9,761 nt of DNA from a virus (IMGVR_UViG_2698536369_000012:1-9761), one strand, 5' to 3'. Shown: positions 1 through 8,255, counted from the first letter of the stretch. The notes: generated by a model from the sequence alone, not told the origin. A program made the numbers and translations.

Positions 1-134
1 GCAATGGCCAGCTCTTCGTCACGCATGTTCTGCATGATGATGCGACGGCGGCGGTAAGCCGGGTCCGCCAGATTCTGCGGATCTTCATCCGGCAGGCGAC
101 GCAGGGTCATCTGCGGATTCACTTCATGCTTCGG
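1..134 (-). pseudogene. 3' internal fragment of a lambda-type major capsid protein E gene; runs off the left edge, 5' side cut by an in-frame TAG at 135-137
   Basis: Minus-strand translation of 1-134 gives PKHEVNPQMTLRRLPDEDPQNLADPAYRRRRIIMQNMRDEELAIA, which I recognise as an internal segment of phage lambda gpE. The next upstream codon (plus 135-137) is a stop, and sequence beyond it is AT-rich and unrelated. Confidence 0.7.
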
Positions 135-213
135 CTACATGAGTCAAATATGAAAGGATGTGAATGAATTTACTTGATAAAACATCATCAAATCGACATT
201 ATTCCTCCTTAAT

Positions 214-237
214 GCAATACAGCGTGCAATACAGCGT
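214..237. repeat. Perfect tandem direct repeat GCAATACAGCGT x2 upstream of the nuclease-domain gene
   Basis: Read directly: gcaatacagcgt at 214-225 and again at 226-237. Confidence 0.6.
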
Positions 238-240
238 GAA

Positions 241-283
241 GTGACATAAATCTGTTCATAGATTCAAGGTGTATAAATATTTA
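241..283 (+). promoter_or_regulatory. Putative sigma70-type promoter region for the 318-1190 gene
   Basis: AT-rich stretch with GTGACA (241-246) and TATAAAT (272-278) about 40 nt upstream of the start; exact -35/-10 spacing is not canonical, so this is tentative. Confidence 0.25.
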
Positions 284-317
284 ACCGTTACTCTGATGAT
301 TGGAACGAGGCTGCACA

Positions 318-1190
318 ATGACTAAAAACACTGGCAGAGATTATGAGGAATTTGTTGGGGCGATTCATCAAAGCTTGATACAAGCTGAGAAAATTTCTCA
401 CTTGAAAAACATCACCGTTGAAGTAAACAAAAAAATCGTAGATAAAAACGGCATAACTAGGCAATTCGATGTGTATTGGGAATTTAACTTAGGAGGTTAT
501 GAATATAAGACCGTAATCGAATGCAAAGACTACGCTTCAAGTGTAAGCATCGAGAAAATTGACGCATTCATCGGAAAAACAGCAGATATTCCCGGCCTAA
601 GACTAATTTATGCAACCAAAACAGGGTATCAAAGTGGGGCTCAAAAAAAAGCCGAACAATATAAAATTGACCTTCTAATAGTTCGTGAAGCTGATAACGA
701 AGACTGGCGCGCGCCAGATGGAACACCACTTATCAAAACTATTCAATTGAATATCGTCGCGATAACTCCCCCCAGAATAACTGCATTCTCACCAATGATA
801 GATGCAAGCTGGCTTGAGTCGCAAAAAAATTTAAACATAGATGATTTAAATTCAAGGTTCAGTCGACTACTTAACAACCAAATATTCATCGTTGATAATA
901 CTACCCACGACAAGTATTCTCTCTGCGACTTAGAAAACTCCTTATCCGCGAGAGTACCTAACATCCAATATGGTGCAGGTACTTACAAAGAAGAGCTAAC
1001 CGACGCTTATTTAGAGTTAGAAAATGGTGATTTAAGATTAAAGCTGAGAGGTTACTCACTTAATTACACATATAACAAACCGGCAGAGACAATTTCTACA
1101 ATTGACTATTCAAAAGAGTTATTGGGAATTGTTCAAAACTATACCTCTGGCGCTAAGAAAATGGTTTTCAAAGACGGAATTATAAAGTAA
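318..1190 (+). CDS. Mrr-like PD-(D/E)xK restriction-endonuclease-domain protein with an uncharacterised C-terminal domain (~290 aa); candidate defence or restriction gene
   Basis: ORF track 300-1190. The first ATG is at 318 with GAGG at 307-310 (7-nt spacing); the track's first codon at 300 is TTG. The N-terminal ~120 aa carry the Mrr catalytic-domain pattern (DYEEFV ... FDVYWEF ... VIECKDY ... GLRLIYATKTGYQSGA ... IDLLIV), i.e. a D...E.K nuclease core. Residues ~125-290 match nothing I recognise. The gene is markedly AT-rich compared with its flanks. Confidence 0.75.
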   Translation: MTKNTGRDYEEFVGAIHQSLIQAEKISHLKNITVEVNKKIVDKNGITRQFDVYWEFNLGGYEYKTVIECKDYASSVSIEKIDAFIGKTADIPGLRLIYATKTGYQSGAQKKAEQYKIDLLIVREADNEDWRAPDGTPLIKTIQLNIVAITPPRITAFSPMIDASWLESQKNLNIDDLNSRFSRLLNNQIFIVDNTTHDKYSLCDLENSLSARVPNIQYGAGTYKEELTDAYLELENGDLRLKLRGYSLNYTYNKPAETISTIDYSKELLGIVQNYTSGAKKMVFKDGIIK

Positions 1191-1247
1191 CAGCATATCA
1201 TTCGAAGTGATTTCCTAATCTAGTGATAAGTCGTTCAATATAAAGAT

Positions 1248-1285
1248 GCGGCCCTTAGCAGGGCCCATTTCACTTTCCTCTCTTC
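1248..1285 (+). terminator. Possible intrinsic terminator downstream of the 318-1190 gene
   Basis: GC stem GGCCC (1250-1254) / GGGCC (1261-1265) with a 6-nt loop, followed by a T-rich tract catttcactttcctctcttc. Confidence 0.35.
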
Positions 1286-1468
1286 GATTAAATCACGAAT
1301 TAAATCACAGCGAACTCAGTTTACAGTCTCAGTATATTTTTTAAACCTATGTTCATTTTCTGCCAATCTGCATTTCATATAATCCGCCCAGCATTTGAAA
1401 AGTGCTTCATCAGTGCCTAGGTAAGCATATAAATATCCCTTAAGAGCTTGGTCAGTAAGCACACTCTC

Positions 1469-1954
1469 CTAATCCCAGTCCACAATGAATTGACGGAAAA
1501 AACCGAATGATTTTGCCGGATCCACATTCCTCCATGTTCCCACCACGATACCAAACACCGGAATCTTAAACGTTACCATTATAGGAAAATCTTCATACCC
1601 AACTTGCTCGATAACTTCTTCTGGTTGTCTTAAACCTGTAGAGATGATACTTCCCTGATAAATTGCTCACCCTCCGGCCAGATGCGCATACCACATTTTG
1701 TCTTCGACATAGATCCACGCAGAAATGATTGCGCCCCCGATACGGCTCTTTCCATAAACTAACAAAACGGGATTCACCTGAGCGGTTGTGTTCGGTACGC
1801 CACAAAACGCATAGGATGCCTTGTAATCCGCATTCTGCTTACTCAATAGCTCACCAGCAGGGCGCATAAGGCTGTTGCGATAGTGCAGAAGTAGGCCACG
1901 ACCATGAAGCGAAGCCAGCGGCGCGTTATTGTCTACTTTAGTGTAGAGCCTGAT
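1469..1954 (-). pseudogene. Decayed gene of unknown family: ~160-codon reading frame with an internal in-frame TGA and no start codon at its 5' end
   Basis: Minus-strand frame translates as IRLYTKVDNNAPLASLHGRGLLLHYRNSLMRPAGELLSKQNADYKASYAFCGVPNTTAQVNPVLLVYGKSRIGGAIISAWIYVEDKMWYAHLAGG, then TGA at plus 1667-1669, then the same frame continues AIYQGSIISTGLRQPEEVIEQVGYEDFPIMVTFKIPVFGIVVGTWRNVDPAKSFGFFRQFIVDWD to a stop at 1469-1471. The track shows only the 66-aa piece (1667-1867). Confidence 0.4.
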
Positions 1955-2015
1955 TCAACGCAGGGGTGAGAGTTTTTTCTGGTGACAGACCGCGACAGAC
2001 GGCAACAAAACCAGA

Positions 2016-2070
2016 GAAAGGAAACGACACTGTCCAAAAAACACGTTTTCAGCATCTGTTGTTTCCTTTC
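2016..2070. repeat. Long inverted repeat: 14-bp arms (one mismatch) around a 27-nt loop, T-rich on both flanks
   Basis: gaaaggaaacgaca (2016-2029) pairs with tgttgtttcctttc (2057-2070); followed by tttttag on plus, and by a T-rich run on the minus-strand side as well. Confidence 0.5.
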
Positions 2071-2235
2071 TTTTTAGTGGGTGTTTCTAATAAAAACATT
2101 AAGTTACGGCGAAGAAGAACGGAAACGCTTTAAACCGGAAAATTTTCATAAATAGCAAAAAACTGCGCGCCTGACGCCCCGTAGTCTGCCGGATTGCCGG
2201 AAAGGACCCGCCAGCCAGAGCGGGCCCTAATTTCA

Positions 2236-2619
2236 TCAACCAATCAGCTTATAGCGACCATCCCGTGCATTGCGGCGTACACGCTCAATCTTGAGGCATA
2301 GCGCCGCATCTGGCTTTTTTGGGACAGGTACGCGGCAATATTCAGAAGCGCGAGGAATATTATTTATCCAGTCGATCACTTCACTTAAATACCAGGCCTT
2401 ACGCCCTTCCGTAACCTGCACACGCTCCGGGAACTCTCCACTAGCCTCAAGGTTTAGCAGTGTACGACGACTCAGGGTTGTAATTTCCATCACCTGATTC
2501 ATATCAACAAGGCGCTCGCTTAAACACATTTTGTCAGCGATAGCTTTTAATTCCTCTACAGCTGGATTCGGGTACATCATTTCGGCAATTGGCTTAAGGT
2601 CATTGTAATCATTCTGCAT
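2236..2619 (-). CDS. AlpA/Xis-type (MerR-like) helix-turn-helix DNA-binding protein, 127 aa, with N- and C-terminal extensions
   Basis: Central segment VMEITTLSRRTLLNLEASGEFPERVQVTEGRKAWYLSEVIDWI fits the AlpA/excisionase pattern (ITxLSRxTL ... G.FP ... W..SEV..WI). Strong RBS AGGGGGA 4 nt before the ATG, 11 nt after the stop of the decoration gene. Confidence 0.7.
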   Translation of the reverse strand: MQNDYNDLKPIAEMMYPNPAVEELKAIADKMCLSERLVDMNQVMEITTLSRRTLLNLEASGEFPERVQVTEGRKAWYLSEVIDWINNIPRASEYCRVPVPKKPDAALCLKIERVRRNARDGRYKLIG

Positions 2620-2630
2620 TGTATCCCCCT

Positions 2631-2972
2631 TTACACACGAGCCAGCGGCTGAACAGAAATACCTGAGCCAACAAACGCTGCAACCTTTACTGACAGTTCT
2701 TTAACAGACTCAGGCCAGTTCAGAGCATCAACATTTAAGACACCTGTCTTATAGACCTGAGCCTGTGTTTTTTTCGCGGTGTCGATTTGTACAGCGGAAA
2801 CATAAACCGCTTTACCTACGCTCGAACCATCCCATACCACCAGTGCACCTGTTGCATCTTCCTGCATCAGTGGCGTAAATGCAGGAATTACCCCTTTATT
2901 AGCTGAAAATATCCCCAGCGTAGTCACCAGTGCTTCAGTGCCAGCCATGAGTTCAGTGTAATGAGTAGCCAT
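2631..2972 (-). CDS. Lambda gpD-type head decoration protein homologue (113 aa)
   Basis: PAFTPLMQEDATGALVVWDG ... YKTGVLNVDALNWPE ... AAFVGSGISV parallels lambda gpD as I recall it ([20 protein letters not shown] ... YKSGTFRYEDVLWPE ... TAFAGTAISIV). Its RBS GGGGGAG overlaps the stop codon of the upstream capsid gene. Confidence 0.8.
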   Translation of the reverse strand: MATHYTELMAGTEALVTTLGIFSANKGVIPAFTPLMQEDATGALVVWDGSSVGKAVYVSAVQIDTAKKTQAQVYKTGVLNVDALNWPESVKELSVKVAAFVGSGISVQPLARV

Positions 2973-2981
2973 TGCTCCCCC

Positions 2982-4022
2982 TTAGCCAATGCGAACGGTA
3001 ACAAAACGATTGATGCGGGCCGGTATTGGCTGTGGTGCTGAATGTGTCTGCACATATTCAATAGCCGGATCACCAGGCACAATATAGTTTTTCGGCGCAA
3101 GTTCGGCTTTAGTCAGCCCCATTCGGATTAGCTCCGGATCCTGAATACCGCCATAGGCGACAATCCCCTGAAGAGCCGTATTGCCAAGCACCATCAAATC
3201 AGGATCAAGGAAATGTTTTTCAGTTCCGTCCTCGTCGGTATAACGCCCGCTGTATACAACAATCGCAACATCGCCCATATACCCTTTAAAACTCACCGAA
3301 TCACCAAGGTCTTTGAGGGCCGTTTCCAGTTCGGAATTAGAACCACGACGGGTATCCAGAGCCTCTTTTATCGCTCTGAATGAACGGTATTTCTTCCATA
3401 CATTACCGCCCATAATGATGATATTAGTGACGCCCTCACTAAATTCTGCGTAGCTCTCAATATCATCATTTGGATCAAAAGTTTCTTTATCCTTACCTGA
3501 CCACTCAGCACCGCCAAACTGAGTGATGATATTTTGTGGTTTAATATTCCAGTCCAGCTCATAACGTTCAATACCATCGCCCTCAATGATATTTTTCCCC
3601 GTTGTGATTGCCTGAACGGCAAGCCATTCAATACGTGCACGAATAGCTTTAGCCTGATTTACAATCGCCTGTTTAACTTTAATATTACGCGCTCCAAAAG
3701 CATTGTATTGCTCAGGTGATACACCAGCAGGGCGCACAGCTAACTTATTTGGATCAATGCTGCTTTTCGGCTTCATATAGCCTGGACGAATTGTTTTTGA
3801 TTCGTACCCTTCGTCACGTGAAACTTTACTACCCACCATAGGAGAACAAAACGCTGCAATTGGGATATTTGGATCGTCGATTGTATCAAGAATAATATCG
3901 CGCGATTCAAACATTACCGAGCGAGTAAAAAACAAACTGGTAAACAACGCATTTAGTTGTTTTTGTACATCTACAGCATTAACCACCTGTACAAGCTGGG
4001 TAGGCGAATATAAATCAACCAT
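2982..4022 (-). CDS. Lambda gpE-type major capsid protein, full length (~346 aa), divergent from lambda
   Basis: Blocks GGAEWSGKDKETFDPNDDIESYA and TRRGSNSELETALKDLGDSVSFKGYMGDVAIVVYSGRY closely match recalled lambda gpE (GGTEWSKRDKSTYDPTDDIEAYA; TRRGSNSELETAVKDLGKAVSYKGMYGDVAIVVYSGQY). The track ORF runs to 4196, but the start is most likely ATG at 4022 (MVDLYSPTQL...), which has GAGG 6 nt upstream and gives a lambda-E-like length; ATG at 4028 is an alternative. Confidence 0.85.
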   Translation of the reverse strand: MVDLYSPTQLVQVVNAVDVQKQLNALFTSLFFTRSVMFESRDIILDTIDDPNIPIAAFCSPMVGSKVSRDEGYESKTIRPGYMKPKSSIDPNKLAVRPAGVSPEQYNAFGARNIKVKQAIVNQAKAIRARIEWLAVQAITTGKNIIEGDGIERYELDWNIKPQNIITQFGGAEWSGKDKETFDPNDDIESYAEFSEGVTNIIIMGGNVWKKYRSFRAIKEALDTRRGSNSELETALKDLGDSVSFKGYMGDVAIVVYSGRYTDEDGTEKHFLDPDLMVLGNTALQGIVAYGGIQDPELIRMGLTKAELAPKNYIVPGDPAIEYVQTHSAPQPIPARINRFVTVRIG

Positions 4023-4196
4023 ACGCATCCTCTTTGCATTCATTAAAAATAATTGTGGATATATGCTATCACCGATATTTGTCATGCGAATACATGCAAC
4101 CGAGTGCAATGTTGTATAAAGTTTTGGGATGACAACTTCAGCGCGGATAATTAGTGTTAATATCTTCACTCCCTTTGGTCTGGATTTATGTAGCAT

Positions 4197-4230
4197 GCCG
4201 GAAAATTTATTTTTTTCCGGCCTTTTTTAT
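4197..4230. terminator. Strong hairpin between the SSB and capsid genes; T-tract lies on the plus-strand side, so function for the minus-strand operon is uncertain
   Basis: gccggaaaa (4197-4205) / ttttccggc (4213-4221), a perfect 9-bp stem with 7-nt loop, followed on plus by cttttttat. May act bidirectionally or as an RNA structural element. Confidence 0.3.
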
Positions 4231-4239
4231 TGGCAATAT

Positions 4240-4689
4240 TTAAAACGGAATATCATCTCCCCATTGCTCATTATCTCCCACTGGTGGATGGCTTCCTTGC
4301 TGATCTGCCTGTTGTTTTGCTCTGTTCAGTGCGTCAGTAGCCTGACCCTGTTGATCTTTTTTGCCGCCCGGTCGCACAGTTCGCGCACTGATTACGCTGT
4401 CTGCGATAACCTGCCACCCCTGCCGCGTTTCACCGTTCTGTCCAGTCCACTGGCTCACCTGCATATTACCCGCCACGCTCAGGAGTTCGCCTTTGTGATG
4501 CTTTGCCAGCGCGTCGGCTTGTCTGCCAAACGCCAGCACAGATAACCACATCGTCGCCGTTCCGTCATCTGCCTGGCTGCATGGCAAAGATACCGCCATC
4601 CGTGCCAGTGTCATGGGTGTTCCCTTGCTGGTATGTTTTACCTGTGGGTCGTCCACCAGCCGCCCGTAAGCTGCTATTTGCGCCGTCAT
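4240..4689 (-). CDS. ssb: Single-stranded DNA-binding protein (SSB), 149 aa
   Basis: OB-fold-like N-terminal region, a Gly/Gln-rich linker (QQGQATDALNRAKQQADQQG) and the hallmark acidic C-terminal tail ending DDIPF. Confidence 0.8.
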   Translation of the reverse strand: MTAQIAAYGRLVDDPQVKHTSKGTPMTLARMAVSLPCSQADDGTATMWLSVLAFGRQADALAKHHKGELLSVAGNMQVSQWTGQNGETRQGWQVIADSVISARTVRPGGKKDQQGQATDALNRAKQQADQQGSHPPVGDNEQWGDDIPF

Positions 4690-4700
4690 GCTGCCTGCTC

Positions 4701-4943
4701 TCAGGACTTAATATTGATGGTTGTCACTTCCTCCGCTTCGGCAATCTCCCGTTCGGTCAGCGTGGCAAAGTTTGCAGCCGCCGTTGTCATGAATGCGCTT
4801 ATCAGTTCGGGATGTGCTTTCGCGTATCCTTCCCCGGCGTTGCGGTCTATTGCCTTAATCGCCACCCTTAGCCAGTGTTCAGCCATATCAAGGGCGCGGT
4901 AATGTGGCTTTATATGTTTGTTCAGTTTTCCTGATGTGTGCAT
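4701..4943 (-). CDS. Hypothetical small protein (80 aa), first gene downstream of the iteron region
   Basis: ORF track; GAGGGGG upstream of the ATG; stop lies 11 nt before the SSB start. No recognisable motif. Confidence 0.45.
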   Translation of the reverse strand: MHTSGKLNKHIKPHYRALDMAEHWLRVAIKAIDRNAGEGYAKAHPELISAFMTTAAANFATLTEREIAEAEEVTTINIKS

Positions 4944-4990
4944 TTTTATTTTTACCCCCTCGTTTAAAAAGTTTTTTGTGCACCACCACC

Positions 4991-5218
4991 TTGTCTACCT
5001 TGTCTACCTGATTAGTTATCAGGCCAGTAATGGCGCGGGTTTCAGGGAGGTAGACAGCCCCAAATAGCTGTCTACCTCATCTCTACCCGTCTCCTTACCT
5101 GTCTACAAAAATGGGTAGATAAGGTAGATAACAGGTAGACAGTGAAAAATAGTTATCTACCTGCATTAATACATTGAAATAAAAGTATTTTATTTCAGTC
5201 AGGTAGACAAGGTAGATA
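4991..5218. repeat. Iteron array: at least 12 copies of the octamer GGTAGA(C/T)A / TGTCTACC in both orientations, with an AT-rich spacer; putative replication origin
   Basis: Copies read at 4991-4999, 5000-5008, 5049-5056, 5069-5076, 5080-5088 (variant), 5100-5107, 5114-5121, 5123-5130, 5134-5141, 5153-5161, 5202-5209 and 5211-5218. AT-rich block at 5161-5200. Sits immediately 3' of the primase-helicase gene. Confidence 0.7.
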
Positions 5219-5232
5219 ACCATTGCCATTTT

Positions 5233-6984
5233 TTATAAAAACGCATCGCAATCATCAGTAGTCGTTGCGTTGGTCTGCGTGACTCCCTTAACTTTTCGCG
5301 TAATATATTCATATCCGTAAACTTTCGCCGCTGACCTCATAGCCTTTCCGAACTCATTCACGCTCAAACATTTCCCCTTTCCTGTATATGCCATGAAGGC
5401 CATATAGACACGGTAAAGGCTGTTTCTGGTCGTGTACTTCACGGTGTCACCACCACCGCCCATCATTAGCCCACGAGCTTCCTCCAGAAACTCCAGCGCC
5501 GCGCAAAGCTCAACAACCGGATCCGTTTGCTGCTTTATTGCCAGAGCTTCATCACCGTCACGCTGTTCCAGTAATAAAGCCCGTGCCTTTTCAGGGTCAG
5601 CAAAATTAGCCAGCAAGCGGCGGATAATTACGGGGATTTCTGCCGCTATCTTTTCCGGTAATTCCTTGTCTTTTTCGTCCTCCCTTACAATGTTGTCGAA
5701 CCGGAAAATCACCCGACGGCGTGACACACCTCCGGCCCGTTCGGTAAAGATCATCGGGTCGTTATTGGTTGCCAGTACCACCGCCCTTATTATCGTCGTG
5801 AATCGCTTCTCATATTTCGGGTTAATTTCAACGGGATCGCCTCCCGTGATTTTCTTGATGCCCGTGCCTTCCCCCGTATATTTCGGCTGATCGGCAAGGA
5901 CGATAAGACGACTCCCGACAACCTGCGCGCGCCCTCCTGCATCATCGAGTGATGTCATCTCTGCGCTTACGGTGTTCTGTTTGCCAGCAAGCAGGGTGGC
6001 AATATGGGTAAATGTACTCTTACCGCTTCCCCCGTCTCCGGTGGCCTCAATGAACATCTGCCAGTCGTAGCGGTTCGCCATAATCATGTATAACGCGGCA
6101 CATATACGCATCATCTTGCGCGGGTCTTTTCCTGCAGCATGTTCAAGCCATTTATGGAAATTTGGCGCATTATCGCGGATGTTTTCCCCTGCTACTGGTG
6201 GCGTGTACTCAATGCCATTGTGCGTGGTGCTCCAGTGCTCCGGTGAGTGCGGAGAAAAATCCCCCGTTTTCAGGTTAAGCACACCATTAGTGAACGGTAG
6301 TAAATCACCGGACGGCTCCCCCATGGGGTCGGCAATAACTTTTAACGCTTCCACGGCGTTATTGATTACACGTTTGCTGAACGTGGCCCTGTGCTCTGAA
6401 TAGATCGCCACCATTTCGCGGCTCAGCTCCATTGTGCTGACCGGACACCATACCCCGCCGCGCCATACGTGGACGATTTCACTTTCTGCATGAACACACA
6501 CACCATCAAAGCGATCGGCAAGTAGTTGTGCACGTTCACTGTCTGCCATCTGTGAAAGTTGCGCCTTTTGCTTCGTCGGAAGATTAAGCACCAGACTTTC
6601 CCCACGCTCGCATTCCTCTTTGAGTCGCGGCAACTGGTCGGATAAATCCACGGGGCTGGTGTCAGTAATCCCCGCGTATTCGTGTACGGTCTTCACTCCA
6701 GCCACAGCCAGTAACGTAACAATCTGCGTCATGCTGTGCTCTGTGATATGTCCTGCGCGGTAAACACGCACACACTGACGATCTTCATCAATGATCCGGT
6801 AATCGATGATGTTTTTCAGTTGCTCATCAGCCAGCACGACAGGCGGCACATCGTCGGCGGCAATATGTTTACCCGCCCATTCCTGCCACTCTTTCGCATG
6901 GCTCCACGCATCACTACCTGCAAAGATGATTACCTCTGTCAGTCTGTCGCGTGGCTGTTTTTTTAAGTTCGGTGCCAGTTTCAT
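5233..6984 (-). CDS. Replication primase-helicase, P4-alpha/D5-type with SF3 helicase domain (583 aa)
   Basis: Walker A GDGGSGKST, Walker B-like RLIVLADQP and motif C VVLATNND are in the order typical of D5/P4-alpha SF3 NTPases. RBS AGGGG lies 7 nt upstream. The start overlaps the upstream gene's stop (ATGA). Confidence 0.85.
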   Translation of the reverse strand: MKLAPNLKKQPRDRLTEVIIFAGSDAWSHAKEWQEWAGKHIAADDVPPVVLADEQLKNIIDYRIIDEDRQCVRVYRAGHITEHSMTQIVTLLAVAGVKTVHEYAGITDTSPVDLSDQLPRLKEECERGESLVLNLPTKQKAQLSQMADSERAQLLADRFDGVCVHAESEIVHVWRGGVWCPVSTMELSREMVAIYSEHRATFSKRVINNAVEALKVIADPMGEPSGDLLPFTNGVLNLKTGDFSPHSPEHWSTTHNGIEYTPPVAGENIRDNAPNFHKWLEHAAGKDPRKMMRICAALYMIMANRYDWQMFIEATGDGGSGKSTFTHIATLLAGKQNTVSAEMTSLDDAGGRAQVVGSRLIVLADQPKYTGEGTGIKKITGGDPVEINPKYEKRFTTIIRAVVLATNNDPMIFTERAGGVSRRRVIFRFDNIVREDEKDKELPEKIAAEIPVIIRRLLANFADPEKARALLLEQRDGDEALAIKQQTDPVVELCAALEFLEEARGLMMGGGGDTVKYTTRNSLYRVYMAFMAYTGKGKCLSVNEFGKAMRSAAKVYGYEYITRKVKGVTQTNATTTDDCDAFL

Positions 6985-7280
6985 TTTTTGCCCCTGAATG
7001 CGTTAATCATGCTTTTCATTTTCTGGATGTTTCCCCGCGCTTTTTCCCTGCTGGTGGGCTTACTGCGGGGTGCGGCATATACCAGGGAAAAATCACGCCG
7101 GAACTGATAAACAGGCATCACGCAGTCATAGCTATACCCCTCACGGCGGTAAGTGATGCGCCGTTCTGCCACGCCTTTAATCTTTACCGTGCCGCCGTAT
7201 TTATCGCGGTAAATATCGCCGTTCATAAATTCAGGCCGAGCGGGGCCGCTGGCAATAAAGCCAGAATTTTTCATTTCCAT
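6981..7280 (-). CDS. Hypothetical basic protein (99 aa), translationally coupled to the primase-helicase
   Basis: ORF track; GAGGAA RBS; 4-nt stop/start overlap with the primase gene. Function not recognised. Confidence 0.55.
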   Translation of the reverse strand: MEMKNSGFIASGPARPEFMNGDIYRDKYGGTVKIKGVAERRITYRREGYSYDCVMPVYQFRRDFSLVYAAPRSKPTSREKARGNIQKMKSMINAFRGKK

Positions 7281-7297
7281 ATTATTTATTCCTCGAC

Positions 7298-7519
7298 TTA
7301 ACTCGACTTATTTGATAGCAGGGCACTATTTATTGCGTCATTGAGTTTTTCTGCTGATTCATCAATAAGTGACAACAGGCCATAAGCAATATTTGCATCT
7401 TCATTGTCATTTATGCAATCAAGCCACATATTTAATATTGCTTTTGCTGAATTATTTAAAGTTAATGAACTTTCTGTACATGCTAACAATTTAAAAAAGA
7501 CTTGCCGTTCTGTATTCAT
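7298..7519 (-). CDS. Hypothetical small protein (73 aa), AT-rich
   Basis: ORF track; GGGGGA RBS 4 nt upstream; start is directly adjacent to the upstream gene's stop. Confidence 0.5.
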   Translation of the reverse strand: MNTERQVFFKLLACTESSLTLNNSAKAILNMWLDCINDNEDANIAYGLLSLIDESAEKLNDAINSALLSNKSS

Positions 7520-7711
7520 TTAATCCCCCAGCAGCTTACTTTCTTCCTCAATCAAAAAACTAGCGACACTTCCCGAAAGACGCGCCAGTAGGCTCGCCAG
7601 TGCGGATATATCAGCATCTGTAATTTTGTTCGGGTATACCTCAAGAAGGCGGCAAATAATTTCTGTCTGGTGCGCACGTTCAGCGGCTTCGTGTAATGTA
7701 ATTTCCTGCAT
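7520..7711 (-). CDS. Hypothetical small protein (63 aa)
   Basis: ORF track; AGAGGTG RBS; its start overlaps the upstream gene's stop by 1 nt (TAATG). Confidence 0.5.
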   Translation of the reverse strand: MQEITLHEAAERAHQTEIICRLLEVYPNKITDADISALASLLARLSGSVASFLIEEESKLLGD

Positions 7712-7896
7712 TAATGCACCTCTTTTAATTCATACACTGCTGAAATAATGACTTGTGATAAGCCATATTCTGATGATTCGCTTCTCACCGCAGCAATAGC
7801 CGTCTGAACATTAACAGCCTTCACATTCTGAGCGATACCAATTGTGTGGCCTAGTGGGTTAACAGCTCGGGCAAATACACGGAAGGTTTTAAGCAT
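7711..7896 (-). CDS. Hypothetical small protein (61 aa), first gene of the minus-strand operon
   Basis: ORF track; GGGAG RBS 5-6 nt upstream of the ATG at 7894-7896. Confidence 0.5.
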   Translation of the reverse strand: MLKTFRVFARAVNPLGHTIGIAQNVKAVNVQTAIAAVRSESSEYGLSQVIISAVYELKEVH

Positions 7897-8177
7897 GACT
7901 CACTCCCTGGCGGATTTTTGCAGCGAATACAGCAACACAACCGGACGGGCAACGGCTACGCGCTTCGCGTTCCGTCCAGGCGGTTACGTGGATGATTTGA
8001 GATTCTCCGGCACTCAGTGCCAGAAAACGCCACACAAAGGCCGTTTGTGTGTGTACAAGGTGTGGTATATGATTTACAGCAACCATAACGGCTCCTAGTT
8101 TACGTTGTTGGTTAGACGCCCCGTATGTGTTCCCAGCACTGCGGGGCGTTGCTCTTTGTATTTCAACAATCCTTTCG

Positions 8178-8255
8178 GTGTGTTTCATGTTATGAGCGCA
8201 TGAAACACACGTCAAGGCTTTTTGTATTTCTTTTTTTGTGTATACTGAAACACAC
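8178..8255. promoter_or_regulatory. Operator-like site set in the divergent intergenic region: perfect 12-bp inverted repeat plus a third half-site overlapping an extended -10 element
   Basis: gtgtgtttcatg (8178-8189), 9-bp spacer, catgaaacacac (8199-8210); a third gaaacacac copy at 8247-8255. TGTG-TATACT (8237-8246) looks like an extended -10 for the 8277 gene. Confidence 0.5.

Follow-up and report, generated by a model that had tools for sequence, protein, structure and literature searches.

A satellite island in a prophage capsid gene

The window analysed here is a stretch of 9,761 nucleotides of viral DNA (IMGVR_UViG_2698536369_000012:1-9761). It is a helper-embedded PICI (HE-PICI) that interrupts the capsid gene of a lambdoid prophage, at site E:Phage_cap_E:80; HE-PICIs of this site group ('11capE' type) were described in 2023 by Tommasini, Mageeney and Williams (PMC10111431). 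In the RefSeq annotation of strain SCU-316, whose island is 99.5% identical (L001, NZ_CP054371 2346260-2365300), halves of a capsid pseudogene stand on both sides of the island, and lambdoid head and tail genes follow further out. In the window, the start of the 3' fragment of the host prophage major capsid gene occupies 1-135 on the minus strand according to RefSeq, position 135 being approximate for the right junction of the satellite, and window 1-171 is 96% identical to positions 4368-4538 of the island of strain 20Ec-P-124 (L002). The window resembles other HE-PICIs in its insertion into a capsid gene, its primase and SSB genes, its own cap_E (2982-4196) and head-decoration (2631-2972) genes, its alpA-like gene, its helper-type cos and its variable 'late zone'. 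The primase, SSB and alpA-like genes and the cos site all lie inside the window; int lies beyond it in the SCU-316 island, and no Nu1/TerS gene was found in the window.

Inward from the right junction come an intact nuclease gene of the Mrr_cat type (318-1190, plus strand; 290 aa; PF04471, E=1.2e-4), carried as cargo in the 3' slot of the satellite, a bidirectional terminator-like hairpin (1250-1265) and, on the minus strand, the remains of two genes. We call these geneA and geneB, names used here for a 'tail assembly protein' gene and the subsequent 'hypothetical protein' gene. Just upstream of the relic, a lambda-type cos site comprising cosN and cosB (2005-2211, minus strand) was recognized by its similarity to lambdoid phages: it is 86-89% identical to their sequence just upstream of nu1 and aligns with lambda nucleotides 1 to ~175. 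The cohesive-end region reads GGGCGTCAGGCG in the window and GGGCGGCGACCT in lambda. Between cosB and the geneA relic lies a spacer of 120 nt (1884-2004) with a GC content of 0.54, for which nhmmer, HMM and tblastn searches detected no similarity to geneA or Nu1; it shows no detectable relation to lambda either and is conserved in related E. coli islands only.

A minus-strand frame open except for one internal stop

On the minus strand, the frame running from 1954 to 1469 comprises 162 codons, with a single internal stop (TGA 1669-1667) and a terminal TAG (1471-1469). It is bounded upstream by a TGA at 1957-1955, and no ATG, GTG or TTG occurs in frame ahead of the ATG at 1867. Its 2 stops in 162 codons compare with a mean of 7.7 in 5000 dinucleotide-preserving shuffles, in which two or fewer stops had a probability of ~0.01 for this frame and of ~0.03 for any of the three frames. 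The openness of the frame exceeds chance, though modestly, and is only moderately unusual.

The initial annotation had read this stretch as one decayed gene of about 160 codons, with an internal TGA and no ATG at its 5' end, AT-rich like the nuclease gene and converging on it. Translation of the minus strand reproduces the single TGA and the missing ATG, the frame does face the 318-1190 gene tail-to-tail, and the homologies and lesions set out below confirm that it is decayed coding sequence. The composition, by contrast, is not that of the nuclease gene: the GC content of the frame is 0.469, close to the 0.462 of the window, against 0.371 for the nuclease gene, and only the 3' part taken alone, which corresponds to geneB, is lower (0.408). 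Nor does the frame end at 1469, where the TAG proves to be a nonsense codon: the frame and the same homology extend past it to a TGA at 1318-1316. Finally, the stretch is not one gene, since the halves on either side of the internal TGA derive from two different genes.

The upstream half is the 3' end of a gpI-type gene

In E. coli genomes, a BLASTN search for distant matches returned 'tail assembly protein' genes followed by 'hypothetical protein' genes. With the two proteins of a capsid-forming PICI (cf-PICI) of E. coli SCU-125 as queries, tblastn split the frame into two homologies, one on each side of the TGA. The upstream homology corresponds to geneA. Positions 1864-1694 match residues 149-204, the C-terminal end, of the 204-aa cf-PICI protein with 70% identity (E=1e-18); a protein HMM built from five PICI homologues aligns with the relic at model positions 148-202 of 202 (E=5.6e-25); and nhmmer delimits the geneA-derived DNA to 1883-1692, equivalent to model nucleotides 433-611 of 612 (E=9.5e-41). 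The relic (1692-1883, minus strand) thus holds the last ~56-60 of ~200 codons of a lambda gpI-type tail-tip assembly gene, without its start codon, N-terminal domain or native stop. In strain SCU-316, RefSeq labels 1667-1864 a pseudogene 'missing N-terminus'; flagging this segment only, as a partial pseudogene, the annotation misses the geneB pseudogene, and our reconstruction corrects it on this point.

The family assignment of geneA comes from its intact copies. The cf-PICI protein matches phrog_32 (E=4e-73) and PF06805 (E=5e-7), the full-length Citrobacter protein shares ~65% identity with gpI of N15 and of mEp234/237/390, and intact geneA matches the chains of tail tip assembly protein I in solved tail structures. 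On these similarities, we assign geneA to the lambda gpI family. What the relic preserves is homology to the last ~56 residues of this tail tip assembly protein I family (PF06805, PHROG 32, chains in PDB 8IYK and 9E7M), with the C-terminal pattern ...SKQ.AD.KASYAF.GV.NT.AQ..PV.L.YGK.RIGGAIISA.IYVED. Intact satellite copies carry the N-terminal, ubiquitin-like Lambda_tail_I domain, which is absent from the window: Pfam gave no match to it, and no homology was found upstream of 1883. The read-through translation of 1954-1469 has no Pfam match at all because the relic lacks the only domain of gpI that Pfam models. An ORF at 1933-2055 (MLKTCF...), suggested by an extension in the 20Ec-P-124 island to be the lost N-terminus displaced by a frameshift, was rejected: its DNA is cosB, with which its first ~50 bases overlap, and the remainder lies in the spacer.

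The downstream half is a geneB pseudogene

The downstream homology corresponds to geneB. Against the 116-aa cf-PICI protein, tblastn aligned 1618-1319 with 47% identity over 100 aa (E=2e-29), the match passing straight through the TAG at 1471-1469, and against the Citrobacter protein it found 63% identity over 110 aa (E=4e-44). The first 14-21 codons of geneB match in another frame, at 1689-1648 (frame -3), where they read MRIWPEGEQFIREV. Combining tblastn and reconstruction, we delimit a pseudogene at 1316-1710 on the minus strand, of ~130-131 codons once restored, starting with an ATG at 1710-1708 and ending with its true stop, TGA 1318-1316. The ATG lies inside the geneA relic, in a different frame; intact geneB likewise overlaps geneA, by 4-20 nt. 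The same layout, a gpI-type gene followed by an overlapping geneB, occurs in further loci (L003, L008-L017, L028-L030 and L032).

The lesions were read from a nucleotide alignment of the window with four intact loci, in which the true stop of geneB is conserved. The first is a deletion of 1 nt between 1647 and 1648, on the minus strand, where the window reads GGGAAGTA-TCATC and the intact genes read GAAGTGCTCATT; it moves the remaining ~110 codons of geneB into the frame of geneA. The second is the TAG at 1469-1471, at about codon 81, where homologues have CAG or CAA. SCU-316 and a metagenome contig (L026) carry this TAG too. With the one base restored, geneB becomes a 131-codon member of a subfamily of 128-aa proteins, aligned without gaps, and is homologous to the family over its whole length, including the invariant motifs W-PEG..F, FRQF..W and G-TD. 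Two other accounts of the frame change were rejected. An insertion of 35 nt is not needed, since the 12 extra codons are native to the 128-aa subfamily, which leaves a single missing nucleotide. Nor does a programmed frameshift as in tail chaperone genes fit, since intact homologues are continuous at this point and no slippery heptamer occurs at 1643-1655.

The geneB family consists of PICI proteins of 112-132 aa in 55 clusters, all annotated as 'hypothetical', and no homologue was found in 50,697 phage records. A sequence search against solved structures returned no match. The best structural match is ORF19 of the V. cholerae PLE (PDB 5IR0), and the fold may, on weak indications from such comparisons, be tail-assembly-chaperone-like. 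Scores against the tail assembly chaperones (lambda gpG-like proteins, the HK97 chaperone 2OB9, PF08748 Phage_TAC_4) and against 5IR0 are weak, and no tested member of the family reaches the Pfam cutoff. In contrast to tail chaperone genes, geneB has neither an adjacent tape-measure gene nor a programmed-frameshift partner, and the frameshift in the window, unlike the programmed one of the chaperones, is a mutation absent from intact copies.

The native stop of geneA is lost as well. Where L013, one of the intact loci, ends geneA with GAT AAA ATG TGA, the window reads GAC AAA ATG TGG, so that a TGG at 1691-1693 (minus strand) replaces the TGA. Beyond the lost stop, the geneA frame runs for eight further codons to TGA 1669-1667, the first stop of this frame after the stop loss, which is located within the out-of-frame 5' part of geneB. 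This TGA is thus off-frame for geneB and beyond the original end of geneA, and it is not a nonsense mutation inside a gene. A single long frame with one TGA is seen because the 1-nt deletion puts the body of geneB into the geneA frame. Very probably, then, the frame is an accidental composite, the relic of the last two genes of the satellite's late operon, and a product of ordinary decay. It provides a clear case of a frameshift by which what is left of two overlapping genes comes to read as a single, deceptively long frame.

Intact and eroded copies in other islands

Five loci of a Citrobacter type were found through one geneB protein (P0027). Their gene order is cap_E (346 aa), HDPD (head decoration, 113 aa), an AlpA-like gene (125 aa), cos, Nu1 (169 aa), geneA (203 aa) and geneB (128 aa), followed by a convergent gene of 290 aa and then by a prophage capsid remnant. 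Window 1-1843 is collinear with this region, with 74.6% nucleotide identity. Compared with the Citrobacter loci, the window has no Nu1 and is missing about two-thirds of geneA, and its cosB is of the lambda type instead of the Citrobacter type.

Intact geneA-geneB pairs also occur without the nuclease gene: in a cf-PICI beside fis, where they come after terS-terL and before a lipoprotein gene and an Abi gene; in PICIs beside rpoD/mug that have a protease-capsid fusion; and in four GTDB species representatives. Other copies are eroded. After cos, L018 retains only the N-terminal 125 residues of geneA (5003-5377), and L004 retains geneA residues 46-202 with a frameshift. L027 keeps only the C-terminus of geneA, geneB is truncated in L031, and L032 has a frameshift. 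As a separate observation, L004 has, between alpA and cos, a lambda-type K'-I fragment that is intact. The stretches of L004 concerned in these observations are 5000-5444 and 5820-6467.

Probable order of the lesions and fate of the relic

The comparisons above show the homologies, the 5' truncation, the three point lesions, the context of the relic and the intact architecture elsewhere. We infer the following order and mechanism of events, and likewise that no functional product is made from the relic now. A deletion or recombination by the lambda-type cos site would have removed everything upstream of about codon 145 of geneA, and the same event would have taken with it any Nu1 gene formerly present between cos and geneA. 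The truncation could have been a deletion in place, together with replacement of cosB, or else an already truncated 3' module could have been acquired by recombination inside geneA. The stop codon of geneA mutated to TGG, and geneB lost one base near codon 21 and gained the TAG at about codon 81. The relative age of the last two lesions can be read from the island of 20Ec-P-124. Its relic is more decayed, the equivalent of window 1571-1752 being inverted (L002 5837-6018), and it shares the 1-nt deletion but has CAA (Q) at the position of the TAG, which makes the frameshift the older of the two lesions. A protein with Q at this position (P0039) was considered as a TAG-free copy and rejected: its contig, L026, has the TAG, and the Q is an artefact of a gene caller using an alternative code, which could mislead searches for an intact orthologue.

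Substitution patterns cannot show a relaxation of constraint: with saturation of synonymous sites in all comparisons (pS 0.59-0.93), dN/dS is uninformative, and it is the lesions alone that testify to decay. The non-synonymous divergence of geneB from intact copies is 0.22-0.33, against a range of 0.18-0.31 among the intact copies, which suggests that inactivation came late compared with the divergence of the lineages.

A value no higher than that among intact copies might also be expected if the relic were still used, be it as a truncated geneB product, a short peptide or a transcript, for instance by interfering with the helper or in a regulatory role downstream of cos. Short ORFs do remain, at 1316-1462 (48 aa) and 1667-1867 (66 aa); the relic lies directly downstream of cos along late transcription, and read-through from the late operon across cos could transcribe it. 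At least four near-identical copies of different origin moreover carry the same lesions without change. The four copies, however, are 99.5-100% identical throughout, so that their agreement is uninformative on selection, and in sister islands the geneA-geneB region shows deletions, inversions or replacements that affect different parts of it. The frameshift strips the conserved N-terminal WPEGE..F.REV strand from any geneB product, and the TAG strips its C-terminal helices. No sigma-70-like promoter was found in 1100-2300, and Rfam gave no match in the window. A present use of the relic is thus very unlikely.

The nuclease gene appears to stand alone

The initial annotation had proposed that the decayed frame was the lost second component of a two-gene system with the nuclease, in an immunity, modification or sensor role, and had suggested a search for intact orthologues next to homologues of the 318-1190 gene. 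Such orthologues exist. In the Citrobacter HE-PICIs, intact geneA and geneB adjoin, in the same convergent arrangement, a nuclease gene at the same position whose product is 80.7% identical to that of the window, and the supplement of PMC10111431 lists a 'Lambda_tail_I,-Mrr_cat' adjacency for Klebsiella HE-PICIs at a different integration site. This part of the proposal thus holds; the partner role does not follow from it. What was found beside the nuclease is not one gene but two, which lie in different frames when intact; the initial annotation had itself named segments of unrelated frames as grounds for refutation, and this is essentially what is seen. Both genes are of tail-morphogenesis types and end a co-oriented late operon; no domain of methylase, antitoxin or sensor type was found in geneA or geneB, whose families are tail-assembly types, and PADLOC had no match for the nuclease, geneA, geneB or Nu1.

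The distribution of the genes points the same way. The pair is intact without the nuclease in the cf-PICIs, the rpoD-side PICIs and the GTDB representatives cited above. Conversely, nuclease homologues of 72% identity in Pantoea, among conjugative-transfer genes, and of 51% in E. coli have no geneA or geneB within 5 kb. The nuclease family, at least 398 clusters of proteins of the same length across Enterobacterales, found as single-gene cargo of satellites and conjugative elements, is far larger than the 55 clusters of geneB. In sister islands, the same slot holds an Abi-family gene (L004) or two hypothetical genes (L002). In the window itself, the nuclease ORF is intact and geneA-geneB is dead. 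With its separable distribution, the pair lends no support to a lost partner, and it is extremely unlikely that the frame was ever the second component of a nuclease system. The most plausible reading of the adjacency is a shared 3' end module that has moved between satellites, with no functional coupling. This removes the story of an orphaned defence partner for the Mrr-like nuclease. From these comparisons, the nuclease seems to act on its own as a cargo gene; no domain is assigned to its C-terminal ~170 residues. The other suggestion, a decaying moron, came nearer the truth: the decay is real, but what decays are late-operon genes of a satellite, and no moron.

That the frame is merely open by chance in non-coding DNA, with no coding ancestry, has practically no probability given the strong protein- and DNA-level homology across 1316-1883, which refutes it there, and the shuffling result, and it probably applies only to the uppermost ~24 codons, the 71 bases of the spacer at 1884-1954, which lack detectable homology.

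A possible role of the intact pair

The relic itself, read as the composite remains of geneA and geneB, holds nothing new; the intact pair is a mildly interesting by-product of the analysis. A fixed, overlapping geneA-geneB pair ends the late operon of tail-less PICIs of at least three architectures. Intact satellite copies differ in this from lambda gpI: they lie outside a K-I-J tail operon, after the terminase genes of tail-less elements. We found no described role of gpI-like genes in PICIs in the literature, and PMC10111431 does not discuss pseudogene relics or geneA-geneB, Lambda_tail_I appearing there only in supplementary gene strings.

The presence of the intact pair in tail-less satellites suggests a hitherto undescribed engagement of helper tail-tip assembly by PICIs, and it is a speculative idea that geneA-geneB acts on this assembly. 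We consider it possible, though rather doubtful, that the intact pair is a dedicated satellite module which re-tools the helper tail tip or poisons helper tail assembly. Re-tooling for the satellite might concern, for example, tail-tip assembly, DNA exit or host range. If this reading were true, the lineages of E. coli HE-PICIs in which the pair has repeatedly eroded would be those that gave up the function. A purely functional analogy is offered by the Tai genes, which inhibit tail assembly and serve PICIs, P4-like satellites and prophages as defence genes (He et al. 2024, PMC11364771). They are described as single genes without known homology, and their escape mutations fall in the central tail fibre J (PMC11364771). 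Like geneA-geneB, they are satellite-borne and sit in cargo hot spots, the Tai genes of P4-like satellites being next to cos (PMC11364771), and by this analogy intact geneA-geneB might likewise act on helper tail assembly.

Distribution of the relic and mosaic structure of the island

In a megablast search, 713 E. coli records match 1200-2240. Most of them match the cos element only, and they include the cos sites of ordinary prophages. A count of ~700 genomes sharing the relic was rejected, most of these matches being to the cos element alone. The geneA relic next to cos is kept by only a few tens of genomes, and the full region is found at 99.5% identity in three.

The island is a mosaic with respect to its relatives. 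Window 1-4896 is 98.2% identical to the SCU-316 island, and window 1749-8240 is 97.7% identical to the island of 20Ec-P-124; the cargo end and the replication zone therefore differ in their nearest relatives.
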